Shown here piece by piece: positions 11,394 to 43,771 of a stretch of 43,813 nt of DNA. Positions within the stretch are counted from its first letter, which is position 1, and every line of letters starts with the position of its first letter. The stretch is from Chromatiales bacterium (GTDB lineage Bacteria > Pseudomonadota > Gammaproteobacteria > UBA6429 > Thiohalophilaceae). The notes below the pieces were generated by a model, which had not been told where the DNA came from, made no database searches, and worked only from the letters and a program-made list of their open reading frames with translations. Position numbers and translations under genes: made by a program. The stretch is taken from the NCBI GenBank assembly GCA_024641465.1, contig JAHEDB010000001.1:1-43813 (forward strand), given 5' to 3'.

Positions 11394-11472
11394 GTTGTCT
11401 CCTCCTAGTGTTATAACAACTAATATACTTAAACTCGTGCTGTCTCCAACTACAAGTCTAGATACACATAGA

Positions 11473-12985: not shown

Positions 12986-14951
12986 CCGCTACCTCCAGTA
13001 ACAAATCATCTTTAACTATTTCCTTTATCTCGGTGGGTAATTCGATATGAACGAGTACACCACCGTCGTTGTTATTCTCTACGGCTATCTTGCCGCCATG
13101 ATGTTTGATAATTCCATAACTCACGGATAGCCCCAGACCCGTGCCCTCACCTTCCGACTTGGTGGTAAAAAACGGGTCAAAAATATGTGTCAGATCAGCT
13201 TCATCTATCCCCATGCCAGAATCGATTATCTGTAGATGAAGGGCATTTTCTGTTTGCCAGCCCTTTATGGTGATCTGCTCATTTGAACGTGATGCCTGTA
13301 TGGCGTTTAACAGAATATTGACTAATACCTGTTGTAATTGGTTGGCATCGCCAGACATGGTCAAAGGCCCATCAATTTTCATTTCCAATTTTATCGATGC
13401 GGCGTCGAGACGGTGTTTGACGAGCCTGACAGTCTCATATACCAGGTCGCTCATATCAAACTGCTCGTAGCTTGGTTTACTCTCCCTGGCAAAACTCAAA
13501 ATACCCTGCACTATCCTCGCACACCGATGACCTTCCTTCTGCAGCAGTTTAATATCGTTGTCTACAGACAGATTCTTGTCTTTTACTTCATTTTCGATGA
13601 GCGCGGCCAGTGACATGATATTCATCAATGGGTTATTTATTTCATGACCGATACCCGCAGCCAGTTGACCAACCGAGGCAAGACGATCGGATTGGCACGC
13701 CAGCCGTTCGGCCTTGTCACGCTCCCGCTCGGTATGTTCCAGCTTTTCTTTAAGGTAATTAAAGGCTTTACCGGCTAACCCGATTTCATCACGTCGTCTG
13801 TCTGAGTAGTCGACCTTATCATCACCATCCGCATATCGGGTGATGATATCCGCCAGTTCGTGTACCGGCTTGGCCAGTCTGCCCGAGGCCCAAATTGCCA
13901 CCAGCAGGCTCACCAGCACCAGCAGACCAAGGATCACCCAGATCGAATGGCGCATGCCGTTGATCTCTGACAATAAGATCTGACTGTCGGCATCAACGAT
14001 GAGTAACCATTGAGTCGGCCGGTTTTTAAACGGTGAAATTTTTTGATAAAACAACATCCGCCCGTCAGCCAGATACAGGGCGCCTTTGGAACTGGTGTTC
14101 TTGATGTATTGCCACTGTACAGCGTTAACTTCTTTGGTAAATCGATATTCGGAATTTAGCTGATCGGCAAAGCGCCGTCGTGTATCAGCGTGATACAGGT
14201 AAATGCCTTCACGGTGTGGATCTCCACTCAATTCGACAATATAGGTCTTACCCGGATAGCCTCGCAATGAGGTCTGCATCGTGGCATCGAGGCGAGAACC
14301 CCAGATATTCACCACCAGGAAACCTTCCAGTCTGTCCACTTCGTCGCGCAGCATGACGGTATAACGCACCATGGCGGGACAGAAATCCGTATCACGGCCT
14401 ACCTGGCCCAATTCAAAGTCAGACATGTTCACTTCCTGCTGACTGTTGAGGGCCTCTTTGAAAAAGCGTTTATCGGATTGATCGGCAATGAACAAACGGC
14501 CGGGAATATTGTCTGCCATTTTAGGCTCAATTGGCTTGCCCTCCTTGACCTTGACGAGGGTCTTACCCGTCGGATCTATAAAACGCAAAGCTTGTATGCT
14601 GGGTACAGCATGCTGGTAATTGAGAAAAAACTGTTCCAGCTCATCGGCATGTTGCTGATAGATTTTGCTATTGAAACTACCATGACTCATGGCTGAAACC
14701 GAGGCGGCGAAGTGTTTTACTGACGGTACCTTTGCCAGCCCCTTGGCAACTGACTCCTGGCTGTTGAGAATCAGTTTTAGTTCTTCCGCCATCCTGTCCA
14801 GGCCGGCCAATAATTCAACTTCAGTGCGATTTCGCACCTCACGTTCCATTTTGTCGACCACACCAAACAATAAAACCAATAAGGGAATACCGGTCATCAG
14901 TGCAAGGACTAGAAAGATTTTTTGTTGGAGTTGCATGCTGCAAAATGCCAC
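12975..14951 (-). CDS. Sensor histidine kinase (two TM helices, ~300-aa periplasmic sensor domain, HAMP, HisKA, HATPase)
   Basis: 658 aa with H-box AAGIGHEINNPL, N-box LLNAIQA and G-boxes DSGMGI / GTGLGLSV. Overlaps the regulator gene by 11 nt. The ORF-track start at 14951 is GTG; an alternative ATG lies at 14936. Confidence 0.88.
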   Translation of the reverse strand: MAFCSMQLQQKIFLVLALMTGIPLLVLLFGVVDKMEREVRNRTEVELLAGLDRMAEELKLILNSQESVAKGLAKVPSVKHFAASVSAMSHGSFNSKIYQQHADELEQFFLNYQHAVPSIQALRFIDPTGKTLVKVKEGKPIEPKMADNIPGRLFIADQSDKRFFKEALNSQQEVNMSDFELGQVGRDTDFCPAMVRYTVMLRDEVDRLEGFLVVNIWGSRLDATMQTSLRGYPGKTYIVELSGDPHREGIYLYHADTRRRFADQLNSEYRFTKEVNAVQWQYIKNTSSKGALYLADGRMLFYQKISPFKNRPTQWLLIVDADSQILLSEINGMRHSIWVILGLLVLVSLLVAIWASGRLAKPVHELADIITRYADGDDKVDYSDRRRDEIGLAGKAFNYLKEKLEHTERERDKAERLACQSDRLASVGQLAAGIGHEINNPLMNIMSLAALIENEVKDKNLSVDNDIKLLQKEGHRCARIVQGILSFARESKPSYEQFDMSDLVYETVRLVKHRLDAASIKLEMKIDGPLTMSGDANQLQQVLVNILLNAIQASRSNEQITIKGWQTENALHLQIIDSGMGIDEADLTHIFDPFFTTKSEGEGTGLGLSVSYGIIKHHGGKIAVENNNDGGVLVHIELPTEIKEIVKDDLLLEVADVN

Positions 14952-29516: not shown

Positions 29517-30040
29517 ATAATTCCTCTCTCCCCTTTGTGGCGTTGCTATTTTATGTCAACAGCAAATTAGTATTTTGTTTCTCGCCTGAGCACTAAAGGC
29601 TAGTCAGTCTAGGCAGACTGCAAGATCGTGTCAAGTTTAGTTCCTAATGAAAAAGATAATAAAAACATCAACATACTTAATTTGCTGGGGGTATAAAAAA
29701 TTTCGGTGTAAAAAAATAAATACAATACAGCACCTTCGCACAATAAAACACGTTATGCAGGATCAAATTAATTCATCCTTGTAGCTTTGGTCTGGCGTTC
29801 AGACAACACCCATCGATAATTTCAGTTACGGTTCGTTCTTTTCATAAGCATATAAGCCTTCACTAATACTCAACATTCTATCTGAGCGGTGTGTACGGAT
29901 TACTGATGTATGTCAACTGGACATGTGTTGCTGATGTAACAGCCAGATCATTTTATGGTTATTACCATAAACAAGCGCGACAAGCTGTCATGGGAAAATC
30001 ACGCCTGACCAGAGGGGATCGCCGGGTGAATTAACTCAAA

Positions 30041-31069
30041 CTAACCGATGCGCCTGAGTATCTGTACCCGCCGGTTATAGGCATCGACGATATATATATA
30101 GTATCCTGATGTCGCAATTCCACTAGGGATATTAAAGAGCCCGGGGCCCGTTCCCGCGCCACCAATGGGCAGCAGGAAGTGTCCGCCCTTGTCGTAGATC
30201 AGCAGGTGATCAAAATGGGCATCAACTATATATATAGTGTCCTGGTCATCCAGCGCGATACCCTTTGGTTTACTGAACTCACCCAAGCGATCACCCAGCT
30301 TTCCAAAGTGGCTCTTTGGGCGGTGCAATTTATCAAAAATCTGTACCCGAAAGTTCATGCTGTCTGTGACGTACAAATTGCCCTGCCGGTCGAAGGCCAG
30401 GTGGGTCGGGTAATTGAATTTGCCCGTTCCGGCCCCACGCTTGCCAAATTGCCCGAGTTTTTTACCTGACGGGTAATAGATATGGATATTGTGCCCCAGG
30501 GTATCGAGCACATAAATATTGCCCGTGACCGGTTGGACCGCGATATCGGTCGGCCGAAGCCAGGCCTTGTCCGTTATCCGGCCCAGGCTATCACCCGTTG
30601 CTGAAAGGCGGTAAATCACCCGCGCCTCGGAATCACTAACCAGGATCTCTCCCTGTGCGGTCAAGGCCGTCCCTAGCGGACTGATCAGTCTATCCTCCCC
30701 CACTTGCTGAATAAATCGATAATCATCATTTGTTGCGCCGATGATATGTATCGCGGCGGCGCCAGGATCGGTCACCACCATCAGCCCCTTGGCGGATACG
30801 GCGATATCGTGAGGTCTTTTGAAGTGACGGCTTGGCTGATCGCCAAACAGGAAACTCGTCAGCTGGGATAAAAGACCCTCGTTTTGGGTTTCCGCTTCAC
30901 CATAGATCGACGTCACATATTCGAAGCGTGCCCTGGCGGGGGGCAAGGGCCAGCGGCTCGGTATCTGACTGGCCGCCGCCGGTTCGGCAATCGCCGCCGT
31001 TGACAGCGTGGCCATCCACATAGCAGTCAACAGGCCAAACTGACCAAAGATATTAAAGTATAGTTTCAT
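30041..31069 (-). CDS. Secreted six-bladed NHL-repeat beta-propeller protein (paralog 1)
   Basis: 342 aa with a signal peptide (...LSTAAIAEP). N-terminal WPLPPARARFEY motif followed by six blades ending in the hydrophobic-Y-V/I-x-D pattern (LMVVTD, ILVSDS, IYVLDT, LYVTDS, IYIVDA, IYIVDA). ATGA overlap with the upstream gene. Confidence 0.85.
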   Translation of the reverse strand: MKLYFNIFGQFGLLTAMWMATLSTAAIAEPAAASQIPSRWPLPPARARFEYVTSIYGEAETQNEGLLSQLTSFLFGDQPSRHFKRPHDIAVSAKGLMVVTDPGAAAIHIIGATNDDYRFIQQVGEDRLISPLGTALTAQGEILVSDSEARVIYRLSATGDSLGRITDKAWLRPTDIAVQPVTGNIYVLDTLGHNIHIYYPSGKKLGQFGKRGAGTGKFNYPTHLAFDRQGNLYVTDSMNFRVQIFDKLHRPKSHFGKLGDRLGEFSKPKGIALDDQDTIYIVDAHFDHLLIYDKGGHFLLPIGGAGTGPGLFNIPSGIATSGYYIYIVDAYNRRVQILRRIG

Positions 31070-32106
31070 GGATAGGGTAGCCAGGCTTCCGGGGTGCGGC
31101 GGAAGATCTGCAGGCGTGATGAACCCATTTCGGAAGTGAACAGCCGTTGCCGGGACTGGTCAAAGCTGATATCAGTCAGTTCAACAAATTTCCCCCTGCC
31201 TCGGCCCAGGGCGCCAAGGCTGAGTATTTTCTGCCCGGCAGTATCCAGTACCACTACCTGACTCCGCTCCCTGTCGGCGATATAGATCACGTCGGTTTTT
31301 TCCACACCAATGGCCACCGGTTCACGAAAATACTCTTTATCCAGCTCGATGGTCTGCAACCAGGCACCGTGTGGACTGAATTTCTGAATGCGCCGGGTGA
31401 TAGCCTCCAGAATATAGAGGTTACCATCCATATCAGCCGTCAGGTCAGACAGCCCTGAGAAACGTCCCCTGTCCTTACCCTGTTCGCCAAACATATAAAG
31501 AAATACCCCACTCAGGCTAAACACATAGACCCGGCCCTGAAAACTATCTGCAACATAAAGGCGTTGCCTTATCTCATCCACCGCGAGCCGGTCCGGGCGA
31601 GTCCACAGTAATGCCGCACCGAACTGGCGAATAAACTGTCCGTTGTCCTGATACACAAGGACCTGCGCCTTGAGTGAGTCGAGCAGATAGATCCGTTTCA
31701 TATCATCAACGGCGACATCCTTTATGGCCGTCACAGCCCTGCCATTAGTGTATTTCAGGGTGTTGACTGTGTTTCGATATCGATCAACCACATGGGCGCT
31801 GCCGCGATCCTGATCGACAACAACCATCAGGTCCCTGCTGGCGGCCACACGGTAGGGTCTGATCATTTGCAGGTTTTGCCCGCTACCAGTGGCTATTCCA
31901 ATGTAAGCAGAGACGGCCTGGTTGATATCAACTGCTTGCTCATAGATCAGCCGTGCCGGGGTCGGTGGTAAAGGCCAAACCAGACCATCATCACCGGCCT
32001 GGGTGACCATTTGCAAAAATCCCTGACAGCCTGACAAACTCATGGCCAGCACTAAACCGGCCAGGATCATCAACCGTGTTTGCATGAGGGAGTAAGGCTT
32101 TGTCAT
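31066..32106 (-). CDS. NHL-repeat beta-propeller lipoprotein (paralog 2)
   Basis: 346 aa with lipobox LSGC, the motif VWPLPPTPARLIY and six NHL-like blades (IYLLDS, LYVADS, LYILEA, IYIADR ...). Confidence 0.85.
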   Translation of the reverse strand: MTKPYSLMQTRLMILAGLVLAMSLSGCQGFLQMVTQAGDDGLVWPLPPTPARLIYEQAVDINQAVSAYIGIATGSGQNLQMIRPYRVAASRDLMVVVDQDRGSAHVVDRYRNTVNTLKYTNGRAVTAIKDVAVDDMKRIYLLDSLKAQVLVYQDNGQFIRQFGAALLWTRPDRLAVDEIRQRLYVADSFQGRVYVFSLSGVFLYMFGEQGKDRGRFSGLSDLTADMDGNLYILEAITRRIQKFSPHGAWLQTIELDKEYFREPVAIGVEKTDVIYIADRERSQVVVLDTAGQKILSLGALGRGRGKFVELTDISFDQSRQRLFTSEMGSSRLQIFRRTPEAWLPYP

Positions 32107-32115
32107 ATACTCTGG

Positions 32116-32943
32116 TTATTTCACCGCATTCTTTGCCTGCTTGCTCACGGAGTGACAGCGATTACAATCCGCGATAGGAAACGCCACCTTGCCGTGGCAG
32201 ACACCGCAATACTCGCCACTATTGATTTTCTTCATAGTAATCGGGTTTCCACCCCGTTTCATCTGGAAAATATCGGGATGACAATTGCTACAATCCAGCC
32301 AGGCGGTATGTGCCTTATGCGGGAACAATACATTGTTCATTGTACCCGCTACCTCCATGGGTATGTTCATGTCCAGAGTAAACTGCTCCTTTGAACCAAA
32401 CTGATCCGCCCGCGGGTTGATCTGGTGTTTGTTAAGTGCGGCCACCCAGTTAACCCCATTACCGAAGGTAGCCGTTGGCAATGTCTTGAGTGCCTCCAGC
32501 GGCGGTTGCAGATCATGTAAATCCGCTGCCGGATCATGCACACCATCATCGATCAACGCCTGGACCACGGCTTTCTCGCGTTTGAATCGATAAAAGTCAT
32601 TGGGGTCCCGGCCGCGTTGTTTTGTTTCATATTTCTTTTCAATTTCCACCTTGGATTTCATGATCTTCTTGACCTGCGTCACGCGCGCGGTCTTATCGTC
32701 CTTGCCGGATGGCGCTTGTGTCTTTGCACTATCATCCTGCTGGATTTTTTCGGCTTCTTTCCTGACATCGTCCAAAGAAGGTACGACAGCCGAACTGCCG
32801 GCCGATGCATCCTGTGCCGCAGGTGCAACTATTGCCTTGTCACCACCGGTCTCCTGCTTGACGGCATCATCGGTAGTGGCGCAGGCGGTTACCGACATCA
32901 GTATCAACAGTAAAATACTTTTACGATTTTGTTTACATAACAT
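32116..32943 (-). CDS. Trihaem c-type cytochrome lipoprotein (c7/c3-like C-terminal domain behind a long charged linker)
   Basis: Three CXXCH motifs (CSNCH, CGVCH, CNRCH) within the last ~60 aa. Lipobox VTAC. The ATG at 32943 has an AGGTGA Shine-Dalgarno; the ORF-track start at 32952 is GTG. Confidence 0.85.
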   Translation of the reverse strand: MLCKQNRKSILLLILMSVTACATTDDAVKQETGGDKAIVAPAAQDASAGSSAVVPSLDDVRKEAEKIQQDDSAKTQAPSGKDDKTARVTQVKKIMKSKVEIEKKYETKQRGRDPNDFYRFKREKAVVQALIDDGVHDPAADLHDLQPPLEALKTLPTATFGNGVNWVAALNKHQINPRADQFGSKEQFTLDMNIPMEVAGTMNNVLFPHKAHTAWLDCSNCHPDIFQMKRGGNPITMKKINSGEYCGVCHGKVAFPIADCNRCHSVSKQAKNAVK

Positions 32944-32948
32944 AAGTA

Positions 32949-33320
32949 TCACCTAGTTTTCTTTACTTGCTTATCTTTTTCTTCGGTGGCTGTCCCGGTA
33001 TGACATCGATCACAATACACCGGCGCCCAGGCAATCTTGCCGTTATGACAGGCCCCGCAGAACTGGCCACCGGCAATCTTGTTCATATCTATATGATTAG
33101 CCTCACGTTTCATTTTAAATCCAAGCTGTTGATGGCAGACCAGGCAGCGGAAACGAATGCGATGAAACCAGTGCGGGAACACCGCCGGTCGCATACCGTT
33201 TTTTTCCGAGTAGTTATTTATCCGCACATCGCCGTATTCGGCCTTAGCCGTGGATATAAAGAGAAAAAATCCCAGCATAATGACGACCATCCCAATCACG
33301 CGATATATACATCGTGACAT
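32949..33320 (-). CDS. Small trihaem c-type cytochrome with an N-terminal membrane anchor or uncleaved signal
   Basis: 123 aa with a GGAGG Shine-Dalgarno. The hydrophobic segment VIGMVVIMLGFFLFISTAKA is followed by CLVCH, CGACH and CDRCH. The domain is a paralog of the C-terminus of the downstream gene. Confidence 0.85.
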   Translation of the reverse strand: MSRCIYRVIGMVVIMLGFFLFISTAKAEYGDVRINNYSEKNGMRPAVFPHWFHRIRFRCLVCHQQLGFKMKREANHIDMNKIAGGQFCGACHNGKIAWAPVYCDRCHTGTATEEKDKQVKKTR

Positions 33321-33458: not shown

Positions 33459-35243
33459 TTACTTATCACCAAAAGAAAAATCGCGCCGCACCTTTGCAAA
33501 CCAAATCGAATCTTCCGTAACAATACCGCCAGTCTCGCTTTGCTTGCGCATAAATCCGGCTTCAGAAAACAATTTACCGAATTGATGGGTGAAACGCACA
33601 TCAAACAGTTTATTATGTTCTTCAACTCCGCTCTGGTTTGTTCTGTTTTCCGTAAGGTATGAGCCACTGCATAAAACATTGCTGCCGAATACCGGGGTGA
33701 CATAGTCAATCCGATTATAGGATGTATGTACTTCGGTATTTTCAGTCTGGGTGAATTCGGTAAATGTGGCGTTTTCCACATGCCCCTTGGTGTATGAAGA
33801 GCCGGCCTGTAGTTTAACTGTCGCCCGCTGTAATACCCTGTGCTCATAATTCAGGTAACTTCTGAATTGCTCGGAGTTGACGGTCATGTCGCTTTCCTGC
33901 TCCAAGGTGGTATAGGATACGTTTCCATTCAGACGTCCGCCCAGGACAGCGCCATCCAGGCGCAGGCCTTTTTCCTGTTGTACCGTCTTGGTTGCGTGGA
34001 TATTGGATTGCCCGTTATAGCCATAATTCACGTCATAATACGGGCTCACCATCAGGCTACCCATCTGTAACCCCAGTTCCGCCCTACCGCCGGTTTGATT
34101 AAAAGAACCATCCTGCTGCTGGGTTTCGTTTGCTGATTCAATCTGCCTTGTAAAACGACCGCCGCTTAACCTGCCCTGTAATTCAAGACTGCCGAACAAC
34201 ACGGCCCTGGTGTAAGCCAGGCCGGATCGTTTGTCCCGACTGTTATAGGCTTCCCCGTTCAGATCGGTGTGCAATTCGTAGCCGCTGGCAAAGGCCGACA
34301 AATGATCGGTCAGGTTATAATCGATATTTACCCGTCCATCGCGGGCTTCGCGCCGGCTGGCTTCGTAATCGTCGAGAAAGTAATTGCCATATACGCCGAT
34401 ATTGACCCTTTTAGTCGGGTTCCACAGCATGGAAACATTATGGCTTCGGCTGTCCTGGTCGGAATATAATGGGTCGAATGTTGCATCCGGATTATCTGAT
34501 TTACGCTGATAGTCGCTGTAAACCACGGAGGTTTGCAGCGTGTCCGATGGCCGGTACACCCAGGAACTGGTCAGGCGATTCGCCTGTGCGGAACGCGCCG
34601 TGTATTTCTCACTGTAATCACTGTTTTCATAGCGCAGGTTGGCTGTCAATCCCTCCCAGCGTTTGAACATGTTGATCCCGCCTGTGCTGCTGTCCTGTTC
34701 ACTCAAAACAGAGACAAGATTACTGCGTGTGGTCTGACCGTAGTAAAACAGGTTAGTTGTCGGTAGTGTGTAAAAATCCAGTTTCAAATCGGCCCCATAT
34801 AATTTTGTATCAATACTTGAGTCAGGACTCGTTTGCATAGTCACATCGGTATCGTTTTCGATTGCATACAAAGTCAGGGGAAAGGGACTATACGGAAATA
34901 ACTTGCCATTGAACCGATATGAAGTCAGGCTTGTCGTGCTCTCGTCTGAATCCCGGACGGTATTGCTCTCCGACAAGGTCCCGCCAAGCCGGTAATCTGC
35001 CAACCACGGTCTGTATAGATAATCGGAATAGTCCAGATTGAGGCGCTGAGTCTGGTTTTTTGTCCTGACATCATTATTGTCTGACGTAGAGGTACGACCT
35101 TGCTGGGCACCAAGTTCAATATCACCACTGACTTCTCCGGCATAAACCGGCCGGTATAAAATGTTACTCAAGGTGACACATACTATACCCAAAAAGAAAA
35201 AGCATACCTGCCGAATCATCCGCAGCCACATACACATTGACAA
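33459..35243 (-). CDS. Predicted outer-membrane beta-barrel protein (~590 aa), family not recognised
   Basis: Signal peptide ending VYA/GE and no Cys in the mature part. The composition is rich in Y/S/T/N/G/D/R with alternating hydrophobic/polar runs (LNLDYSDYLY, LKLDFYTLPTTNLFYYG, VNIDYNLTDHLSAFASGYEL, ...), typical of large porin-like barrels. The start codon is uncertain (TTG at 35243, ATG at 35237, 35231 or 35219). Confidence 0.6.
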   Translation of the reverse strand: MSMCMWLRMIRQVCFFFLGIVCVTLSNILYRPVYAGEVSGDIELGAQQGRTSTSDNNDVRTKNQTQRLNLDYSDYLYRPWLADYRLGGTLSESNTVRDSDESTTSLTSYRFNGKLFPYSPFPLTLYAIENDTDVTMQTSPDSSIDTKLYGADLKLDFYTLPTTNLFYYGQTTRSNLVSVLSEQDSSTGGINMFKRWEGLTANLRYENSDYSEKYTARSAQANRLTSSWVYRPSDTLQTSVVYSDYQRKSDNPDATFDPLYSDQDSRSHNVSMLWNPTKRVNIGVYGNYFLDDYEASRREARDGRVNIDYNLTDHLSAFASGYELHTDLNGEAYNSRDKRSGLAYTRAVLFGSLELQGRLSGGRFTRQIESANETQQQDGSFNQTGGRAELGLQMGSLMVSPYYDVNYGYNGQSNIHATKTVQQEKGLRLDGAVLGGRLNGNVSYTTLEQESDMTVNSEQFRSYLNYEHRVLQRATVKLQAGSSYTKGHVENATFTEFTQTENTEVHTSYNRIDYVTPVFGSNVLCSGSYLTENRTNQSGVEEHNKLFDVRFTHQFGKLFSEAGFMRKQSETGGIVTEDSIWFAKVRRDFSFGDK

Positions 35244-35248: not shown

Positions 35249-36265
35249 CTACCTCCCAACATATGTCGGGCCAGCACCGATGATGATTTTTGAATTATCC
35301 CGCAAACCCTGTCGCAGGTCGTCAAACCATTGCCGGTATTTCACCGTAAGCACGTCATTTTTGACCTGTTCACGGACCTCATCAAAACTAAAGGCCTGCT
35401 GCGGTACCGATTTGACTTTTTTCAACAATATATATCCATTCAGAGTAAACAACGGTTTTAAAATATCCCCATCGGCCAGCTTGTCTAGCCCTCGAACATC
35501 ATAGCCACGCATACCCTCATGAATGGTCTTCTCGGTTATCTTCAGTCCGGCTTGTTTTTTGTAAGCGTCGAAACTTTTGCTTTTCCTGACCTCTTTGTAT
35601 AGCGAATTGATCCGTTGACGTGCCTTGTCCCATTCCTGCTTGGTGGATGACGGAGGCATCTCAATCATTAACTCAACGGTCTTAATGGTTTTCGGCGAGC
35701 GGTATTTTTCACGGTGCTCGTTAAAATATGCCTCTACATCAACATCCTTCGGCATAGAGGCCTGTTTACCCTGCTCCCATAACTTTGTAATGACGTAGGA
35801 TCGCCTAAGGTCTTCATGTAACCGATTCTTCACCTCCTCATCGGCCAGCGCGAGTTGCATCTGTTTATCTGCGGTATATTTCTCGCGATATTTTGCGTAG
35901 GTAAATTCCACCCATTGTTCATCCCAGCCTATACCGCGATGCAAGGCCTCGCGATAGAACAATTCCTTATCGACGATATTTTCAATCGCCTGTTTACGGA
36001 TCGCCTGCCAGCGCTCCTTCGAGAGATTGTGATATTCAGCCACGGGTGCAAGCCGTTCGACTTCACGTGTCACTTCATCTTCGGCAATCGGCACACCATT
36101 GACAATCACAGTCGACAGGGTCTCGACCATATCGGCCTTTTCTGCCAGGACTGGACTGGACGCCAGACCGGCGAGGGGCAAGCCCCACGCCAGCACTAGC
36201 AACCAGCCGGCGACCAACACCGCCGGCCTGGGTTGAGACCGTTCCGCTACGCTTGCAGTCGTCAT
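35249..36265 (-). CDS. Periplasmic SurA/PpiD-like peptidyl-prolyl cis-trans isomerase (parvulin type)
   Basis: About 338 aa. Signal/anchor ...LVLAWGLPLAGLASSPVLA, a SurA-N-like helical region, and a parvulin-like segment (...PKTIKTVELMIEMP...GYILLKKV...). AGAGGAAGG Shine-Dalgarno. The stop lies 5 nt before the barrel gene. Confidence 0.75.
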   Translation of the reverse strand: MTTASVAERSQPRPAVLVAGWLLVLAWGLPLAGLASSPVLAEKADMVETLSTVIVNGVPIAEDEVTREVERLAPVAEYHNLSKERWQAIRKQAIENIVDKELFYREALHRGIGWDEQWVEFTYAKYREKYTADKQMQLALADEEVKNRLHEDLRRSYVITKLWEQGKQASMPKDVDVEAYFNEHREKYRSPKTIKTVELMIEMPPSSTKQEWDKARQRINSLYKEVRKSKSFDAYKKQAGLKITEKTIHEGMRGYDVRGLDKLADGDILKPLFTLNGYILLKKVKSVPQQAFSFDEVREQVKNDVLTVKYRQWFDDLRQGLRDNSKIIIGAGPTYVGR

Positions 36266-36280
36266 CACACCTTCCTCTTA

Positions 36281-37132
36281 TTACTTGATGTGACAAACCG
36301 TGCAAAGGCTGCTATTGGCCACGGTGGTACGCAGGAATGAGGGGAAAGGCGCACCAGAGGATGTTCCATCAACCGAAGTCCCGTGTGGGTTGTGACAGGA
36401 AGCGCATTGCACCTTGGTGCCATACAGACGCACTTCATTATCTTCCAGTATGCCGTCTCCATCATCAAACCAGTCAAGTCGGGCATTGCCGGTACCGCGC
36501 GTCGCGGCGGGAGCATTAAACTTCGGATCGGTATTACCGATCGTCGGATAGACAATCGATACCGGGTGGTCATCCCGCAGATCGGTTCCCAGCAGGCGCA
36601 CGTTGGGGTTACCGTTTTCATCGGAGGAAGGGAAAGTATTATTTGTACCGCTACGATTAAATACAAATCCGATGCGATTATTATTACCACCCAGGGTCGG
36701 ATCCGATGGATCGATCCAGCCACCCACACCCGGTTTGTTGACCAACAGGTCAAGCGCAACGGTACCATCATGACAGCTCAGGCATGCCAGGGAAACGCCA
36801 TCCGGTGCCGGGGCAACACCACCTACGCCACTGTCCAGTGTCGGGCTCTGATAGGATTGATAAGTGGCGGTGGTCACCCCACGGTTCCATAAGGGGGCAT
36901 CCACATTATCGCGAGATTGCGAACCGTGCGGGGTATGACAAAACACACAAGTCTGGGTGGTGTCGAAACCGGTTCCACCATCACCGGTTATCTTGACATA
37001 ATTCGCACCGGGATTGGTTGAACTCAAGTCATGCCGACTGCCAACCACCGATGCCGCCTGAACACCCCAGCCTGTTAACATACCAGCTGCGACAAAAATA
37101 CCACCTGTTATTTGTAAAATTTTTGTTTTCAT
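36281..37132 (-). CDS. Secreted tetrahaem c-type cytochrome
   Basis: 283 aa from the ATG at 37132 (GGGAGG Shine-Dalgarno), with signal peptide ...GWGVQAAS. Four CXXCH motifs (CVFCH, CLSCH, CASCH, CTVCH) and four additional conserved His (RHDL, TPH, DHP, NPH), consistent with bis-His ligation. Confidence 0.9.
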   Translation of the reverse strand: MKTKILQITGGIFVAAGMLTGWGVQAASVVGSRHDLSSTNPGANYVKITGDGGTGFDTTQTCVFCHTPHGSQSRDNVDAPLWNRGVTTATYQSYQSPTLDSGVGGVAPAPDGVSLACLSCHDGTVALDLLVNKPGVGGWIDPSDPTLGGNNNRIGFVFNRSGTNNTFPSSDENGNPNVRLLGTDLRDDHPVSIVYPTIGNTDPKFNAPAATRGTGNARLDWFDDGDGILEDNEVRLYGTKVQCASCHNPHGTSVDGTSSGAPFPSFLRTTVANSSLCTVCHIK

Positions 37133-37153
37133 AATTACCTCCCGCGGTAACAT

Positions 37154-38251
37154 TTACATTTTTTCTTCTCGTACTTCAGATTGCTGTTGAACGTCTTGCC
37201 GTATGAACTGCCAGACCTGAATACGGCGGTTATATTGGTCGGCGAAGTAGATTCGATCATTGCCATCGATCCACATGCCGGCCGGCAACCAGAACTCTCC
37301 CGCCCCCTTGCCCATGGTGCCGGCAAATAACAACAGTCGTTTGGTCTGGTCAAAAACCTGTACATTATTGAATGCGGAATCGATGACATAGATATGTCCT
37401 TCCGAATCCACCGCGATACCCTTGGGTCGGGCAAACGACCCTAGCCCGGTGCCGGCGGCGCCGAAACCGTCCAGGTATTTACCCTGGTGGTCAAAGATCT
37501 GCACCCGGAAATTGCCGGTATCGACCACATAGACATGGCCAGTAGCATCGCTACAGATATTGGTTGGGAAATTGAAATTACCCTTGTCGGCACCGCGTTT
37601 GCCAAAGTCGAACTGGTGCCGGCCTTTTGCATCAAACACACTGATGGCGTGATGCGGGCTATCCAGTGTACCGGTATTCACCACATAGATATGACCATTA
37701 AGCGGGTTTACCGTGATCCCGGTCGGCCGTGTCAATAGCTTCGGCCCACCCATGGCACGTTGATAGTTGCCCTTACTGTCATAAACGATCACCCGGGACT
37801 GATGGGCATCGGTAACATACACCATGCCTTGCTTGTCAACGGCCACTGCAATCGGCTTGTCAAGCCGACCGGCGCCTTCGCTGCCGAACACCTTAAAAGT
37901 TTTCTCGCCTTGATTAAACACCAGCAGTTTGCCGAGGATGGTATCCGTGACGTACACGGTCTTGTCGAAGGCGGCCACCCCATAGGGTTTGATCAGTGAC
38001 ACATCCTGCGCCATGCCGCCGACCAGTTGTTTGAAGTTATCGAAGGCGCTCTGTGGTTTGACATCCTTGCTGGAACGGATGCTCTCGACATATTTAAGTC
38101 GCGGCTGCTCCGGAGGCAGCGGCCAGACCCAGTGTTCATCCTGTTTTGTAACGGAACCACAGGCGGCAAGCAGGACAATACCACCCAACATCAGGACCAG
38201 TCTGGGTAAAATAGTCGGCTGGATATTCACTTGATATGGCATGTCACGCAT
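37154..38251 (-). CDS. NHL-repeat beta-propeller lipoprotein (paralog 3)
   Basis: 365 aa with lipobox LAAC, the motif VWPLPPEQPRLKY and six blades (VYVTDT, VYVTDA, IYVVNT, VYVVDT, IYVIDS, IYFADQ). Overlaps the upstream cytochrome gene by 16-25 nt. Confidence 0.85.
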   Translation of the reverse strand: MRDMPYQVNIQPTILPRLVLMLGGIVLLAACGSVTKQDEHWVWPLPPEQPRLKYVESIRSSKDVKPQSAFDNFKQLVGGMAQDVSLIKPYGVAAFDKTVYVTDTILGKLLVFNQGEKTFKVFGSEGAGRLDKPIAVAVDKQGMVYVTDAHQSRVIVYDSKGNYQRAMGGPKLLTRPTGITVNPLNGHIYVVNTGTLDSPHHAISVFDAKGRHQFDFGKRGADKGNFNFPTNICSDATGHVYVVDTGNFRVQIFDHQGKYLDGFGAAGTGLGSFARPKGIAVDSEGHIYVIDSAFNNVQVFDQTKRLLLFAGTMGKGAGEFWLPAGMWIDGNDRIYFADQYNRRIQVWQFIRQDVQQQSEVREEKM

Positions 38252-38982
38252 AGCGCACTCCCCTGCAATCCAACACGCAAAAAGGGTTTGGTCTTGGCGT
38301 TATGTACGTCATGACAACTCGCGCACTCGACCCGCCCATTAAACAACTTCACGCCATTGGCGAATTCATCACTACCCGGGCGTGGATTAAACTGCTTGTC
38401 CTGCAACAGCGCCGGATAGGTGATCGATACCGGGTGATCGTCACTCAGGTCGTTACCAAAGGCAGCGATGCCCAGGTCATGGATGCCCTTGATATTCTCA
38501 TTACCCTTGCGATGACACTGGCTGCATTGCGTGTCACCGCCGCCCCTGGCGATATGCATGTGCTTTTTCGGCAAGGCCTGTGTATCGCTGATCGGTGGCC
38601 GTTTCATTACGCGATCCACGGCTAGACTGCCGTCATGGCAGCTCAGACAGGCGAGGGTGATACCGGCGGGTTGAGAGATCGTTGCGTCGAGGGTGGGGCT
38701 TTGATACAGCTTGTATTCGGTTACCGGGTATTCGCGGTTCCACAGCGGGGCCTTGCCCTCTGAGGACTCGCTTACCGGACGGTGTGGTGTATGGCAATAA
38801 ACACAGGTGCTCTGATAATTTTCAAATGCCACACCGACCATGACCCCGGTCCCGGCACGATTGTCCAGACTGGTGAGGTCGTGTTTGCTGCCCAGCATCG
38901 ACATTGCCGAGCCGGTTTCTGTTACAGCAGCCAGTCCTGTCATCAAGACAAAGCCCAGCGCTGTTGACCTGTTACACCACAT
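38227..38982 (-). CDS. Secreted pentahaem c-type cytochrome
   Basis: Five CXXCH motifs (CVYCH, CLSCH, CSQCH, CASCH, CVTCH). The ATG at 38982 gives a plausible signal peptide, MWCNRSTALGFVLMTGLAAV.... The ORF-track start at 39018 is TTG. Confidence 0.88.
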   Translation of the reverse strand: MWCNRSTALGFVLMTGLAAVTETGSAMSMLGSKHDLTSLDNRAGTGVMVGVAFENYQSTCVYCHTPHRPVSESSEGKAPLWNREYPVTEYKLYQSPTLDATISQPAGITLACLSCHDGSLAVDRVMKRPPISDTQALPKKHMHIARGGGDTQCSQCHRKGNENIKGIHDLGIAAFGNDLSDDHPVSITYPALLQDKQFNPRPGSDEFANGVKLFNGRVECASCHDVHNAKTKPFLRVGLQGSALCVTCHIK

Positions 38983-39095
38983 GCTATATCCATCACACCC
39001 GTAAAAAAAAATAATCAAGCCAAAAAATCATTTTTCCCTGTTTTTTTACTGTTCCGTGGGGACGGAAGGATAATCAATATTAGACATCGCTGTTA

Positions 39096-39109
39096 TTGAT
39101 CTGGATCAA
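39096..39109. promoter_or_regulatory. FNR/CRP-family box 1: TTGATctggATCAA (perfect FNR consensus)
   Basis: Read directly from the sequence, in the divergent intergenic region, 87-123 bp upstream of the pentahaem gene start depending on the start choice. Confidence 0.7.
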
Positions 39110-39153
39110 GGTAAAATTGCATTACATTATTTAATTTCCGGATATAAATTTTC

Positions 39154-39167
39154 TTGATCTAGATCAA
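39154..39167. promoter_or_regulatory. FNR/CRP-family box 2: TTGATctagATCAA (perfect FNR consensus, core of the 18-bp palindrome TCTTGATCTAGATCAAGA)
   Basis: Read directly from the sequence, 58 bp centre-to-centre from box 1 and 67-82 bp upstream of the monohaem cytochrome start. Confidence 0.7.
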
Positions 39168-39248
39168 GAAATTGCTGGGGTTTCTGTAATCAAATCCCCC
39201 GCCCGTTCGGAACGGGAAAAATAACAATTTCAAATGAGGAATAAAAAT

Positions 39249-39560
39249 ATGGTATACCGCAGTAAAGTAATTCTGATAACCCTTGCCCTGGCAACATCAC
39301 CTGCCGTTGTTTTTGCAGCTAACACCCATAACGGTAACAGCCTCTTTCAGGAAAAATGCGCTGTTTGTCATGGTAAGGACGGCCATGCCGTATTGCCTGG
39401 CGCACCCAACTTTGCCAAGGGTGAGCGTATGGAAAAGCCTGATAGCACGCTCAAGGCCACGATTACCAATGGGCTGAACGTCATGCCCCCCTTCAAGGGC
39501 GCCCTGTCAGATGCCCAGATGGGTGATCTGCTGGCCTTCATCCGCACACTCAGAAAATAG
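39249..39560 (+). CDS. Periplasmic monohaem class I cytochrome c (c551/c552-like)
   Basis: Signal peptide MVYRSKVILITLALATSPAVVFA, one CAVCH motif and a distal Met in NVMPPF. The ATG at 39249 has a GAGGA Shine-Dalgarno 8 nt upstream; an alternative ATG lies at 39234. Confidence 0.88.
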   Translation: MVYRSKVILITLALATSPAVVFAANTHNGNSLFQEKCAVCHGKDGHAVLPGAPNFAKGERMEKPDSTLKATITNGLNVMPPFKGALSDAQMGDLLAFIRTLRK

Positions 39561-39568
39561 ATCACTTC

Positions 39569-39600
39569 GGGTCCATGCTGGATATGGACCCGTTTTCTTT
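39569..39600 (+). terminator. Terminator/attenuator-like hairpin between the monohaem and undecahaem cytochrome genes
   Basis: 8-bp stem gggtccat/atggaccc with a 7-nt loop, then GTTTTCTTTC. It starts 9 nt after the cytochrome c stop and covers the first two in-frame ATGs of the next ORF. Confidence 0.4.
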
Positions 39601-41899
39601 CATCATAATGAAATCCACCCCACCGGCTCAAAACAGGTTTATCAAACTGCTAGACACATGCTACGTACCTGCGTCTATCTGCCTGATAATCATCATGAAT
39701 TACTTACCCTGTGCATCGCTCTATGCGGCCCCCCAGGAAGACATACTCAATACCCGGCACAATCTCTCGGTGAGTGGCAGCGGGGAGGTGCGCGCCACCA
39801 GTGAAAACCGCGTATGTGTCTTTTGTCATACGCCCCACCGTGCCGGTAATACCGAGTATCAGGCACCCTTGTGGAACCGTGAGTTGTCCAAGGTTTATTA
39901 CAATGTCTATCAAAGTACCGCACTACAGGCCGGCCCGCTGGGCCAGCCCGATGGCAGTTCCCGACTCTGTCTGAGTTGTCATGATGGCACGATAGCCATC
40001 GGCAAGGTTAACAACCTGTGGGGACAAAGCCAGACTATCCAGATGAACGGCATAGCCAGCGATGGCACCATGCCACACGGCACCGGCGTACAAAGCGGTT
40101 TTACCCGCCGGCTGGGTTCAGATCTGACGAATGATCATCCCATCTCCTTTCGCTATGATGCGGCGCTGGCGGCCGCCGATGGTGAACTGCATATCCCACC
40201 TAATCAATATGTCCGCGCCCGCGTCCCGGGGGAGGCCCAGGTCTCCCTGCCACTGGATGAGGCCGAAAAGGTGCAATGCACCACTTGTCATAATCCGCAT
40301 CTGGCCGGTGTCGATAAATTCCTGCGCTGGCCCCTTACCCAGACCAGCGATAGCGCCAGCAGCGGTACGGGCGCCATTCTTTGCCTGCAGTGCCATGACA
40401 AGCAAAGCTGGATCGGCAGCGCCCACCAATCCGCCACTATCGCCGATGAACAATATACGCCAGGCAATTATCTCGGTAAGGAAGGGCAGGTATGGCAACA
40501 CGCCTGTCTGAATTGTCATGATACCCACACCGTGCAAGGCGCCAAACACCTGCTCAAGGAAGGCACCGATAGCCCCGCCAAACCCAAAAACGGCGGTAAT
40601 CCGGCGCAGGAACAAACCTGTTATTTATGTCATAGCCCCGCCGGTGAAAGTGTCTTGAGCGTATTTCAAAATCGACCACCGAATATCAAGTCTGAATTCG
40701 CCAAGACCTATCACATGCCGATCACCGGCAATGAGCAGGGTATCATCGGAGAAAGCCACCGTATTGAAGATGCCGATCTGACCGAACCCGCCAGCAACCT
40801 CGGTAGCCAGCGTCATGTTGAATGCAGTGACTGTCACAATCCCCATCGTGCCGGGCCGCAGCGACATAAACACAGCGCCCCCCATAGCAACCTGCTTGAG
40901 GCCAATAGCCCACTCAATGGTATGTGGGGTATCGAACCCTCGTTCAGCGGTCCGACTGCCTTTCCCGCCATTGGCCAACCCATTCTGTCGCTGTTCATCA
41001 ACTTAATGAAACCGGCCACTCGTGAATACCAGATCTGTCTCAAGTGTCATTCAAGCTATGCCTATGGTAACAATCCGCCGATGTTGAAAAGCTTTACCGG
41101 CGGCGGCTCATACGGTGTAAACGAGCTCACCCAGGCAACGGATCAGGCCAAGGAATTCAATCCCAACAATGCCTCTTATCATCCGATCATTCAATCTACA
41201 CACAGAACACTGGCAACAAGAAATATTACCGGCACCAGTCCATTCCTGGCCCCTTTTAGTCAGGTCGGTAATCAGACCATGTATTGCACCGATTGCCACG
41301 GCGCCGATACGCCCTCCGGCACATCCACCCCGCTCAGTAACACGCCGTGGGGGCCGCATGGTTCAAACAATGCCTTCGTGCTGAAGGGACGCTGGGACAT
41401 CAACGAATCGCCGCCCAATTCCAGCTGGTTGTGTTTCCGTTGTCATGATCAAAACGTATATGCCAGTCCGGCCGGTGGTGACCCCAATGTCACCGGCTAC
41501 CGTGGGCCCACCATGATGGGTGTCGTACAGAACCTGCATCGCTATCACTACTCGCGCCTCGGCAGTCAGTTCAAGTGCGTGCTGTGCCACAGCGCCGTGC
41601 CCCATGGCTGGAACGGCAATCCCGCCAATCCCCTGTATGGCACACCAAACTATGCCAAGATGTTGCTGGTGGAGCGGGACGATGCCCCGCCCTATCGCAC
41701 CAGCGCCACCCGTCTGCTGGTGGACAGCTGGGCTAACAGCGGCAGCTGGAGTTTTAATAATTGCCGCACAGCCATGCAGGGCGGCACCCTGCGCGGCCAG
41801 ACCTGGACCGGTTGTGCCGGAATGGGCGGTGGCGGTGGCGGTGGCGGCGGTGGCGGTGGCGGTGGCGGCGGTGGCGGCGGTGGCGGCGGTTTGCCATGA
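39575..41899 (+). CDS. Undecahaem (11 x CXXCH) c-type cytochrome with a C-terminal poly-glycine tail
   Basis: CVFCH, CLSCH, CTTCH, CLQCH, CLNCH, CYLCH, CSDCH, CLKCH, CTDCH, CFRCH and CVLCH. The N-terminal ~230 aa are a paralog of the tetra/pentahaem proteins. The start is uncertain: ATG at 39575 or 39584 (both inside the hairpin) or 39608 (MKSTPPAQNRFIKLL...). The stop overlaps the next gene's ATG (ATGA). Confidence 0.88.
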   Translation: MLDMDPFSFIIMKSTPPAQNRFIKLLDTCYVPASICLIIIMNYLPCASLYAAPQEDILNTRHNLSVSGSGEVRATSENRVCVFCHTPHRAGNTEYQAPLWNRELSKVYYNVYQSTALQAGPLGQPDGSSRLCLSCHDGTIAIGKVNNLWGQSQTIQMNGIASDGTMPHGTGVQSGFTRRLGSDLTNDHPISFRYDAALAAADGELHIPPNQYVRARVPGEAQVSLPLDEAEKVQCTTCHNPHLAGVDKFLRWPLTQTSDSASSGTGAILCLQCHDKQSWIGSAHQSATIADEQYTPGNYLGKEGQVWQHACLNCHDTHTVQGAKHLLKEGTDSPAKPKNGGNPAQEQTCYLCHSPAGESVLSVFQNRPPNIKSEFAKTYHMPITGNEQGIIGESHRIEDADLTEPASNLGSQRHVECSDCHNPHRAGPQRHKHSAPHSNLLEANSPLNGMWGIEPSFSGPTAFPAIGQPILSLFINLMKPATREYQICLKCHSSYAYGNNPPMLKSFTGGGSYGVNELTQATDQAKEFNPNNASYHPIIQSTHRTLATRNITGTSPFLAPFSQVGNQTMYCTDCHGADTPSGTSTPLSNTPWGPHGSNNAFVLKGRWDINESPPNSSWLCFRCHDQNVYASPAGGDPNVTGYRGPTMMGVVQNLHRYHYSRLGSQFKCVLCHSAVPHGWNGNPANPLYGTPNYAKMLLVERDDAPPYRTSATRLLVDSWANSGSWSFNNCRTAMQGGTLRGQTWTGCAGMGGGGGGGGGGGGGGGGGGGGGGLP
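41825..41890 (+). repeat. Imperfect trinucleotide repeat (GGC/GGT) x 22 encoding Gly22
   Basis: Counted codon by codon: 22 consecutive GGY codons in the cytochrome frame, followed by TTG CCA TGA. Confidence 0.95.
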
Positions 41900-42867
41900 A
41901 CCTACTCAACTATGTCAGCTCACACCGCGCAGCCTATAGCAGCATGTTGCTCGTCATGGCTGGCCTATTGCTGCGGCTTGGTTTTCCACAACAGGCCTGG
42001 TTATCGGACAGTCCGCTTTATCTGCTACTGCTATGCCTGAGTTTGTCGCTGCTCTACCACTGGCGACGGTTCATAAGCCAGCCGTTGATGCTGGTGTTTC
42101 ATCTGGGCCTGCTGTTTACCCTTGGGGCGATGTTGATCGCTCCCAACTTTCGAGCCACGGGTTATTTTGAACTGGCCGAAGGCCAGACCCTGCATGATCA
42201 CTTGATCTTTTTTGAGGGTGGACATTTTGCCGACAGTCCACCGACTGACTGGTCGCTTACTCAGGAAACGATTCACGTCGAATACCAATACGGCAACATC
42301 GGCAAGGCCATCCACACACAACTCTTCGATCAACAACAAGGCCAGACAGTGGCCATTGGTTTTATGCAGGCCGCCACCATCCATGGTTATCGTATCGAAC
42401 CCACCGGTAACATGGGCTATGCGGCGGTATTTACCTTTACCGACTTACAGGGCAAACAGACCCGTGGTGTCGTCAACTTCCCCGGTTATCCAACACAGAA
42501 ACTCCAGACCAATCCATTTAAAACCCCAAATGGCAAATGGACCAACGCGACCCTGGAAATGGAACAATGGCCCTATCAGGATCATACGGCCTGGACACTG
42601 GCTATCCCGGCATCGGCGCGCATCAAACTCAAGGCTGAACAAAACCGCTTTGTGCTTAAACCCGGCGAAATTCACAAATTGCCTTCCGGTCAATTAAAGC
42701 TCGACAAGATCAGTCGCTGGCTGGGTTATAAACTTAGTCGTGACCCACTGGCCCCCATGATATTTTTCAGCAGCCTGTTGAGTTGTCTGTCACTCGCCCT
42801 GTACTACTTGCGAACCCAAAAAATCGAGATAGTGAAATGGTACAGAGTTTTCTCTACGGCGGCTTGA
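41896..42867 (+). CDS. ResB/CcsB-like cytochrome c biogenesis protein (short form, 323 aa)
   Basis: ResB-type topology: three N-terminal TM helices (the third carries a conserved-looking His, VFHLGLLFTLG), a ~190-aa periplasmic domain and one C-terminal TM. Lies directly upstream of a CcsA-like gene. The family call is by architecture and context only. Confidence 0.6.
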   Translation: MNLLNYVSSHRAAYSSMLLVMAGLLLRLGFPQQAWLSDSPLYLLLLCLSLSLLYHWRRFISQPLMLVFHLGLLFTLGAMLIAPNFRATGYFELAEGQTLHDHLIFFEGGHFADSPPTDWSLTQETIHVEYQYGNIGKAIHTQLFDQQQGQTVAIGFMQAATIHGYRIEPTGNMGYAAVFTFTDLQGKQTRGVVNFPGYPTQKLQTNPFKTPNGKWTNATLEMEQWPYQDHTAWTLAIPASARIKLKAEQNRFVLKPGEIHKLPSGQLKLDKISRWLGYKLSRDPLAPMIFFSSLLSCLSLALYYLRTQKIEIVKWYRVFSTAA

Positions 42868-43583
42868 GCTGTTACCTGCTGGCAACCGTGATGAGCCGGT
42901 TTACCCGGCGCGGTTTGGTACCGATACTGATGATCGGCAGCACCCTGCACGGCATCGCCCTGTTGCAAGACTGGATGGACAACCAGCATGGGCCCTATCT
43001 GGGGTTATTTGATTCTCTATCGAGTAATCTGTGGACCCAACTCCTGGTGTTAGGCTTGCTGGCCAGTTTTAAGCTGTCATTTCAACGCGCCCTGCCTTAT
43101 GGCCTCGCCCTTGCCCTGCCCTTCGTTATCTGGCTGACTTTCGTCTCACCCGAACATCACTCCCTGCCACCAACCTACGCTACCCGCTGGTTCTACCTGC
43201 ACCTGTATGCCGGCAAGCTCGCCTATAGCCTGTTATTCATTGCCGTCACACTCAGTATTTATGAATGGCGCAACAAGCAAGCTATCTCATACACAACCCA
43301 ATACATCATGCTACTCGCCTTTCTCTGTCACAGCCTGCTGCTGTTTGCAGGTGGCAACTGGGCCTATCTCGCCTGGGGCAAATACTGGGACTGGAATCCG
43401 CTTGAGATCTGGAGCCTGCTGACCTGGTTGGGGTTTGGCTTATTTTTTCATCGCCGCAGTATGACAAATTGGAAATACTTGCCGGGTCAACACGGGTTTA
43501 TCACGCTGATCTATCTACTCGCGATATTGGGATTTTACGGGATTCCATTTTTGAGCAAGGCGACGCACCAGGGACTGGTTTGA
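42837..43583 (+). CDS. ccsA: CcsA-like cytochrome c assembly protein (haem-handling, WWD-domain family)
   Basis: 248 aa, polytopic. Trp-rich motif WGKYWDWNPLEIWSLLTWL followed by a His (FFHRR), and an earlier TM His (YLHLYAG). Overlaps the ResB-like gene by 31 nt. Confidence 0.8.
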   Translation: MVQSFLYGGLSCYLLATVMSRFTRRGLVPILMIGSTLHGIALLQDWMDNQHGPYLGLFDSLSSNLWTQLLVLGLLASFKLSFQRALPYGLALALPFVIWLTFVSPEHHSLPPTYATRWFYLHLYAGKLAYSLLFIAVTLSIYEWRNKQAISYTTQYIMLLAFLCHSLLLFAGGNWAYLAWGKYWDWNPLEIWSLLTWLGFGLFFHRRSMTNWKYLPGQHGFITLIYLLAILGFYGIPFLSKATHQGLV

Positions 43584-43649
43584 GGGTTGTGGATATTTCT
43601 TCAGTTTGAATCTCTGACGCGATTCATTATCAAAAGATACAAATGAAAA

Positions 43650-43675
43650 AGCCCTGCAACTTCCGTTGCAGGGCT
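43650..43675. terminator. Bidirectional rho-independent terminator between ccsA-like (+) and tRNA-Leu (-)
   Basis: 11-bp stem agccctgcaac/gttgcagggct with a 4-nt loop, flanked by A5 upstream and TTCTCTGATTTT downstream. Confidence 0.7.
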
Positions 43676-43686
43676 TTCTCTGATTT

Positions 43687-43771
43687 TGGTGCAGATGGCG
43701 AGACTCGAACTCGCACGGCTTGCGCCACTACCCCCTCAAGATAGCGTGTCTACCAATTCCACCACATCTGC
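43687..43771 (-). tRNA. tRNA-Leu (anticodon GAG)
   Basis: Reverse complement reads GCAGATGTGGTGGAATTGGTAGACACGCTATCTTGAGGGGGTAGTGGCGCAAGCCGTGCGAGTTCGAGTCTCGCCATCTGCACCA. It has a 7-bp acceptor stem, a long variable arm, the anticodon loop TTGAGGG and an encoded CCA. Confidence 0.9.

Follow-up and report, generated by a model that had tools for sequence, protein, structure and literature searches.

The gap between two divergent gene arms in a 43,813-bp stretch of DNA from a Chromatiales bacterium (contig JAHEDB010000001.1 of the GenBank assembly GCA_024641465.1, positions 1 to 43,813; hereafter the window) carries two perfect FNR-type boxes, and it can be read with reasonable confidence as a pair of back-to-back, activator-dependent class II promoters, each provided with one box of the FNR/ANR class. 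The genes on both sides form, as judged from domain content, haem counts and gene order, a Uet-type (undecahaem electron transfer) cluster for extracellular electron transfer, and this is the first regulatory hypothesis that we could find for a cluster of this type. Its parts differ in strength: the boxes are very probably functional FNR-type sites that control both promoters, class II activation is their likely mode of action, and low oxygen, acting through FNR or ANR proper, is the signal towards which we lean.

Regarding the boxes themselves, box 1 (TTGATCTGGATCAA, 39096-39109) is proposed to serve the minus-strand arm, and box 2 (TTGATCTAGATCAA, 39154-39167) the plus-strand arm. Each agrees with the FNR/ANR consensus TTGATNNNNATCAA (TTGAT-N4-ATCAA; PMC5398030) at 10 of the 10 specified positions, and the half-sites TTGAT and ATCAA with their 4-bp spacer are of the FNR type; a CRP-type site would have a GTGA core and a 6-bp spacer. 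On both strands of the window these are the only two exact matches, and both fall inside the 266-bp, 34% GC gap that extends from the ATG at 38982 (minus strand) to the ATG at 39249 (plus strand), with 58 bp from centre to centre. Base composition alone predicts 0.033 matches in the window, and dinucleotide-preserving shuffles predict 0.07 on average, with two or more matches in 0 of 100 shuffles. The first-pass annotation of this DNA had placed two perfect boxes here and judged them improbable by chance; its sequences and coordinates are all correct, the judgement holds, and an origin as a chance or low-complexity artefact is excluded by the shuffles and by the cross-species conservation described below. 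Sites with up to two mismatches to the consensus are more numerous in the window (46 vs 24 expected); they are mostly coding, and no meaning was assigned to them. The quasi-symmetry attributed to the control region is also borne out, with three inverted repeats nested around a common centre near 39132, and a perfect palindrome of 22 bp (39150-39171) has box 2 at its core. Finally, each box contains two GATC sites, as had been claimed and as can be read directly from the letters, and the four lie within 72 bp.

Close orthologues of the gap were reached by exact-protein look-ups of sequence-search matches and fetched singly; scans of species-representative genomes and of JGI metagenomes returned distant homologues only, with at most 45% identity. 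Three relatives, named here L162/L163, L171 and L164, whose pentahaem cytochrome (the first gene product of the minus-strand arm) is 83%, 83% and 79% identical to that of the window, have two perfect boxes 58 bp apart, and together with the window they make up a four-species alignment. Here, 26 of the 28 box columns are invariant (13 of 14 in box 1) against 62 of the 238 columns outside (Fisher p = 4e-12), and the pairwise identity outside the boxes is 44-58%; the boxes are under strong purifying selection, and the spacing of the pair is fixed within this closest clade. This invariance across species, while the flanks diverged, supports the earlier proposal that the boxes are real FNR/ANR-type regulatory sites. 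All eight boxes of the four species share the form TTGATC-N2-GATCAA, which exceeds the requirement of the FNR consensus; more distant boxes that do not have this full form (L165, L173, L161) contain one GATC or none.

Beyond this clade the arrangement is kept with less precision. L165 (65% identity, gap of 476 bp) has one perfect box on the cytochrome c side and, on the other, two that deviate from the consensus at one position each, and L173/L174 (61%, gap of 412 bp) has a one-mismatch box for each arm; one box per arm is retained despite the different gap lengths, in line with the claim that each box faces one arm. L167 (68%) has a relic with two mismatches, and L172 (65%) has no box at up to two mismatches, with a three-mismatch relic of the L167 site recognisable by eye. 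No box is found in L169 and L170 (59% and 56%, both of high GC) or in L166 (79%), in which a 35-bp tandem repeat of 10.6 copies takes the place of the upstream region; this repeat, at positions 1-370 of the L166 locus, precedes the gene for the pentahaem cytochrome, and the contig ends inside it. Control by the boxes is conserved within one clade and is not universal.

As for the promoters, the cytochrome c side has a hexamer with four to five of six matches to TATAAT that starts exactly 23 nt past the end of the box in six of six species (TCAAAT, TCTAAT, TTAAAT, TTAAAT, TATAAA and TATTAT; the background probability of at least four matches is 0.092), and the six include L165 and L173, whose gaps are differently built. 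On the minus-arm side, the corresponding hexamer is found at offset 24 in four species (TATCCT, TACCCT, TATTCT and TATCTT), with T-12, A-11 and T-7 invariant, and L165 has TAGAAT at offset 23. In the window, the putative -10 elements are TCAAAT at 39190-39195 (plus strand), for the promoter of the cytochrome c and uetJ-like genes, and TATCCT at 39067-39072 (minus strand), for the minus-arm promoter; with the usual 7-nt gap they predict transcription starts near 39202 and near 39060, respectively. Relative to these predicted starts, the offset of 23 would set the centre of box 2 at -41.5, and that of 24 would set the centre of box 1 near -42.5. The -35 slots read AGAAAT and TAACAG, unlike TTGACA, and the activator site overlaps them. 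In the known class II FNR layout the box lies at -41.5 and is accompanied by a -10 such as TAGAAT (PMC3718329); the class II geometry suggested at first pass, with boxes near -41.5, is consistent with the offsets of the -10-like hexamers and with the missing -35 elements.

A sigma-70 scan of the gap gave no self-sufficient promoter into either gene, and its matches did not exceed shuffle expectation. The sole sigma-70-like match, at 39045-39074 on the plus strand, has both boxes downstream of it and lies 175 bp from the cytochrome c ATG; owing to this poor placement, and to its being within shuffle expectation, it was rejected as the cytochrome c promoter. A sigma-54 promoter was considered as well, given the NtrC-type activator encoded at 11615-12985, and was discarded, as the GG-N10-GC signature is absent from both strands of the gap.

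According to the mechanism that we propose, the 266-bp gap would hold two back-to-back activator-dependent promoters, each box lying about 41.5-42.5 bp upstream of its start and overlapping the missing -35 element, and one dimer of a CRP/FNR-family protein of FNR/ANR specificity class would bind at each box. The active regulator (for FNR/ANR proper, the [4Fe-4S] form, which accumulates at low O2) would then make direct class II contacts with sigma-70 RNA polymerase and thereby recruit it. In one direction, this would lead to transcription of a nine-gene minus-strand operon from 38982 to 30041, from the pentahaem cytochrome to the last NHL protein; in the other, to that of a four-gene plus-strand operon from 39249 to 43583, encoding cytochrome c, the UetJ-like protein, CcsB and CcsA, with read-through past the cytochrome c gene presumably tempered by a conserved terminator-like hairpin.

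Similar boxes recur in distant lineages. In L069, a metagenome-assembled genome of the Sneathiellales with 60% GC, two perfect boxes immediately precede Uet-like genes: one is in the gap shared by an operon for EB_dh-haem and NapC/NirT proteins and a divergent NHL gene, and the other is upstream of a multihaem cytochrome gene, with TATTAT at offset 22. L161, a metagenome locus, has a perfect box in the divergent gap between a peptidyl-prolyl isomerase gene and an NHL gene, with CATTAT at offset 23. These two loci appear to be independent recurrences and add support to the proposal. Over 160 distant loci, perfect boxes number three in 229 kb upstream of Uet-like genes vs four in 1,561 kb elsewhere, an enrichment of about five-fold. 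Regarding the genes of L069, positions 5685-10510 encode a NapC/NirT tetrahaem protein and an EB_dh-family haem protein, divergent from NHL and multihaem cytochrome genes. In another locus, L100, two identical perfect boxes (TTGATTGGAATCAA) stand 48 bp apart at 10182-10243, about 2.4 kb downstream of a Uet-like pair of multihaem cytochrome and NHL genes (the NHL gene ends at 7781) and beside open reading frames with no Pfam match.

Several observations weigh against activation by FNR or ANR as set out above. No gene of the CRP/FNR family was recognised by a cNMP-binding or HTH_Crp domain among the open reading frames scanned in the window, and a tblastn search with an E. coli FNR probe found no match in the window and none in the related loci, which amount to about 1.9 Mb. 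The hexamers taken as -10 elements are weak, and in the four closest species the one on the cytochrome c side has no A at -11, where this base is canonical. These four species with the 58-bp spacing are fairly close kin and count as roughly one lineage, to which L165 and L173 add two, and the enrichment at distant loci comes from very small counts. Boxes are missing at L166, L169 and L170, and at most Nitrospirota and other Uet-like loci, so that the control is lineage-specific. Finally, it should be noted that the start sites, activation as opposed to repression, and the identity and signal of the regulator are all inferred. As regards the regulator, its absence beside any of the clusters fits a global protein encoded elsewhere and not a dedicated local one.

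The type of box does not single out a signal: Anr and Dnr boxes are indistinguishable, and regulators of the Dnr type are sensors of nitric oxide (NO) (PMC5398030). Hosts of Uet clusters are thought to be microaerophiles, and Uet has been proposed to feed electrons to cbb3 oxidases. The genes of these oxidases are classic targets of FNR, ANR and FixK, and this connection makes low O2 the most economical signal. The same sites and the same class II mechanism might serve another member of the family, such as an NO sensor of the Dnr/NnrR type, a protein of the FixK type acting downstream of a FixLJ-like system, or a dedicated paralogue responsive to redox state or electron-donor supply, in which case the cluster would answer to NO, denitrification or another cue and not directly to low O2. 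Two facts are compatible with this less probable version: the perfect boxes of the alphaproteobacterial L069 would be read by proteins of the FixK/FnrL type, and the TTGATC-N2-GATCAA form of all eight closest boxes could be the mark of a more restricted specificity. The sequence gives no reason to prefer NO or another signal to O2, and the lack of any such regulator gene beside the cluster at any locus speaks against a dedicated local paralogue.

The boxes could also be repressor sites placed over both -35 regions, which would turn the cluster off under anoxia and on with oxygen. FNR is generally known to repress some promoters through sites that overlap core elements, and O2 is believed to be the terminal acceptor in the clade of the host; against this, neither promoter has a recognisable -35 or a strong -10, so that both look activator-dependent instead of constitutive and repressible, and the exact -41.5 register in six species is a signature of activation, making repression improbable. 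The four GATC sites within 72 bp bring to mind an epigenetic switch by Dam methylation, like those of pap and agn43, with heritable ON and OFF states set by competition between the regulator and Dam. Both GATC sites are kept in eight of eight boxes of the four closest species at positions that the FNR consensus leaves free, and the 58-bp spacing is fixed; yet the conserved C and G are explicable by recent common ancestry, the boxes of more distant orthologues (L165, L173, L161) contain one GATC or none, and the window shows neither an excess nor a deficit of GATC (282 observed vs 288 expected). The attempt to deduce the presence of Dam from this frequency likewise gave no signal, and we consider the switch extremely unlikely. 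Taken more broadly, a specialised switch for the conduit, whether through a CRP/FNR paralogue narrowed to TTGATC-N2-GATCAA and responsive to conduit redox state or NO, or through Dam-sensitive heritable ON/OFF states that depend on the four conserved GATC sites and the constant 58-bp spacing, is a speculative option to which we give little credence.

As for the other elements of the gap, the AT-rich spacer between the boxes (39110-39153, 44 bp) has an invariant length in the four species and a diverged sequence; it has no indel in the alignment, and several indels are found in both flanks. It may be a shared, UP-like docking region for the C-terminal domain of the RNA polymerase alpha subunit, or the site of a second factor. 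In the middle of the spacer, the motif ATATCCGnAAAnTAAAT (minus strand, 5' to 3'; 39133-39150) shows partial conservation among the window, L162 and L164; its comparison by eye with the consensus sequences of ArcA, NarL and IHF gave no convincing match. Outside the boxes, the longest run that is invariant in the four species is CATCACACC (GGTGTGATG on the coding strand), at 38991-38999 on the minus strand, 9-17 nt upstream of the ATG of the pentahaem cytochrome, and it is probably part of a ribosome-binding or translation-control region. An Rfam scan of the window returned two tRNAs and no other known RNA family.

Two short GC hairpins flank the boxes, ttccgtGGGGacggaa at 39052-39067 (minus strand) and cccgttcGgaacggg at 39202-39216 (plus strand, -7.5 kcal/mol); measured outward from the centre of the box, the distances are 43 and 48.5 bp, respectively. 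Their sequences and coordinates had been given correctly at first pass, together with the suggestion that they might be the 5' ends of the two mRNAs. For the cytochrome c side this fits the predicted start, as the hairpin is located at the predicted 5' end of the mRNA; the other hairpin overlaps the -10 and +1 of the putative minus-arm promoter, which would leave it outside the mRNA, and neither is conserved. The hairpin at 39052-39067 is specific to the window, falls in an indel of the alignment and is missing from L162, and in place of the one at 39202-39216 the relatives keep weak, differently placed stems; the folding z-scores of the cytochrome c leader (-1.8, 0.2, -2.0 and -0.1) are unremarkable when compared with shuffles. 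Hence, a role as conserved RNA or DNA elements was rejected, and both hairpins are treated as window-specific features with no demonstrated function.

Regarding the genes, the minus-strand arm starts with the pentahaem c-type cytochrome (38227-38982; five CXXCH motifs, Paired_CXXCH_1), followed by an NHL-repeat beta-propeller protein (37154-38251), identified by domain search; the two genes overlap by 25 nt (38227-38251), as annotated likewise in L162, L164 and L165, and this shared overlap suggests translational coupling. Next come a tetrahaem cytochrome with four CXXCH motifs (36281-37153), called UetA-like after the uet literature, a SurA-like peptidyl-prolyl isomerase with Rotamase_2 and SurA_N domains (35249-36268; UetB-like), and a 594-aa protein with no Pfam match (33459-35243), which is at the position of the UetC beta-barrel porin as judged by conserved gene order only. 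Two trihaem cytochromes c7 of the UetD/E/G type follow, one at 32949-33320, recognised by three CXXCH motifs and by the Cytochrome_C7 domain of its counterparts in L165, L167 and L170, and the other at 32116-32952, recognised by domain search and three CXXCH motifs. The arm ends with two UetH/I-like NHL-repeat proteins, at 31066-32106 and at 30041-31069, assigned from the gene list and from relatives.

The plus-strand arm begins with a monohaem class I cytochrome c of 103 aa (39249-39560), identified by domain search, and directly after its stop codon comes a terminator-like hairpin with a U tract (39568-39592), made of a 10-bp stem and TTTTCTTTC. L162, L164 and L171 retain this hairpin with stems of other sequence, and it is probably an attenuator or a stabiliser between the cytochrome c and uetJ-like genes. 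The latter encodes an undecahaem cytochrome of 774 aa with 11 CXXCH motifs (39575-41899); because its annotated ATG (39575) is inside the hairpin stem, the true start is probably the ATG at 39608 (MKSTPP...). The UetJ-like protein ends in 22 consecutive glycines, for which a (GGC/GGT)n tract at 41826-41890 codes. The last two genes were identified by domain search and encode a ResB/CcsB-like cytochrome c biogenesis protein (41896-42867), whose start is probably the ATG at 41896, overlapping the uetJ-like stop codon, and a CcsA-like cytochrome c assembly protein (42783-43583). The arm is closed by a strong bidirectional terminator (43645-43680), just before tRNA-Leu(gag) (43687-43771, minus strand), which is the right border of the cluster; the second tRNA, tRNA-Met, is at 9489-9565.

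The genes of each arm are tightly packed or overlapping. The first-pass annotation had held that the whole island is switched on by the boxes, and both arms do have a box; this claim is to be qualified by the conserved hairpin after the cytochrome c gene, which probably makes the uetJ-like and ccsBA genes dependent on partial read-through. It should also be noted that the GC content of the cluster, overall and at third codon positions, matches that of the backbone, so that the term island denotes the gene cluster only; the idea of a horizontally acquired island was rejected on this ground.

Elsewhere the window consists of unremarkable chromosomal genes, with rimP-nusA-infB-rbfA-truB-rpsO-pnp, soxYZ, an NtrC-type two-component pair and nuoA-N. 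Positions 9618-14951 contain soxY, soxZ, a DsrE-like gene and the NtrC-type response regulator with its histidine kinase, a gene content suggestive of sulfur oxidation by the host. For nuoA, a good sigma-70-like promoter of its own (TTGACA-17-TAGACT) stands upstream at 29606-29634 (minus strand), within the 524 bp that separate the cluster from the nuo operon. The best named matches of the polynucleotide phosphorylase are from gammaproteobacterial metagenome-assembled genomes (88-89% identity), followed by Kaarinaea lacus (77-79%), and on this protein the host is placed among the uncultured Gammaproteobacteria. The same sequence is also present in run SRR12825371.

Clusters of the Uet type are candidate conduits for the uptake or release of electrons at minerals and electrodes, and their hosts include uncultured gammaproteobacteria, Gallionella and many other lineages. 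If control by FNR/ANR-class boxes is true, the conduit would be induced together with the low-oxygen or N-oxide respiratory regulon, for instance the cbb3 oxidases; this knowledge could guide the choice of conditions for enrichment and expression, and aid the reading of metatranscriptomes across oxyclines. The gap would also offer a compact, natural, bidirectional and oxygen-responsive promoter.

Among known systems, the closest in gene content is uet (for undecahaem electron transfer), a cluster that received its name in 'Ca. Tenderia electrophaga' (bioRxiv 10.1101/2022.05.06.490989) and was later found in Gallionella (PMC10734462). It comprises the tetrahaem UetA, the peptidyl-prolyl isomerase UetB, the beta-barrel UetC, the c7 trihaems UetD/E/G, the NHL proteins UetH/I, the undecahaem UetJ and CcsAB (bioRxiv 10.1101/2022.05.06.490989). 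The window shares with it the 11-haem and tetrahaem cytochromes, the peptidyl-prolyl isomerase, a large putative outer-membrane protein, the c7 trihaems, two NHL proteins and a type II CcsBA system. The order is also the same for the tetrahaem cytochrome, the isomerase, the 594-aa protein (matched to UetC by position), the two c7 and the two NHL proteins, and the UetJ-like protein with 11 CXXCH motifs is followed by the ResB-like and CcsA-like genes. In contrast to uet, the cluster of the window is split into two divergent operons, and its additional genes encode a pentahaem cytochrome, an NHL protein and a monohaem cytochrome c; the cupredoxin UetF is not among the Pfam matches, and there is no unassigned open reading frame in the window arm. 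As for regulation, none is known to have been described for uet. The Tenderiales uet paper has zero occurrences of FNR, Crp or 'transcriptional regulator', and among the papers searched there is none that mentions both 'Tenderia electrophaga' and FNR.

With the Dam-dependent switches of pap and agn43, the likeness is limited to GATC sites inside regulator sites of a control region; the window differs in having no evidence of Dam, of partners of the Lrp/OxyR type or of phase variation. A parallel is offered by Dinoroseobacter shibae, in which Fnr/Dnr palindromes between divergent respiratory operons, such as the pairs nirS-nosR2 and hemA3-dnrE, govern the genes on both sides (PMC5398030). Palindromes of the CRP/FNR family in the gap between divergent operons are common to the two systems; there, a single palindrome is shared by the two directions, whereas in the window each direction has its own box at what would be a class II distance. 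A model for each promoter is given by the class II promoters of E. coli FNR and of Pseudomonas ANR/DNR (PMC3718329, PMC5398030), which the window resembles in its 10 of 10 consensus matches, its predicted -41.5/-42.5 positions, its weak -10 and missing -35 elements, and in having T instead of G at the position by which FNR-type sites are told apart from CRP-type ones. It departs from these promoters in the back-to-back pair of perfect boxes at a fixed 58 bp, both of the form TTGATC-N2-GATCAA, and in the target, an extracellular-electron-transfer cluster instead of a classical operon of anaerobic respiration. In conclusion, the regulatory logic proposed for this gap is textbook, and its interest lies in the unstudied target to which it would be applied.

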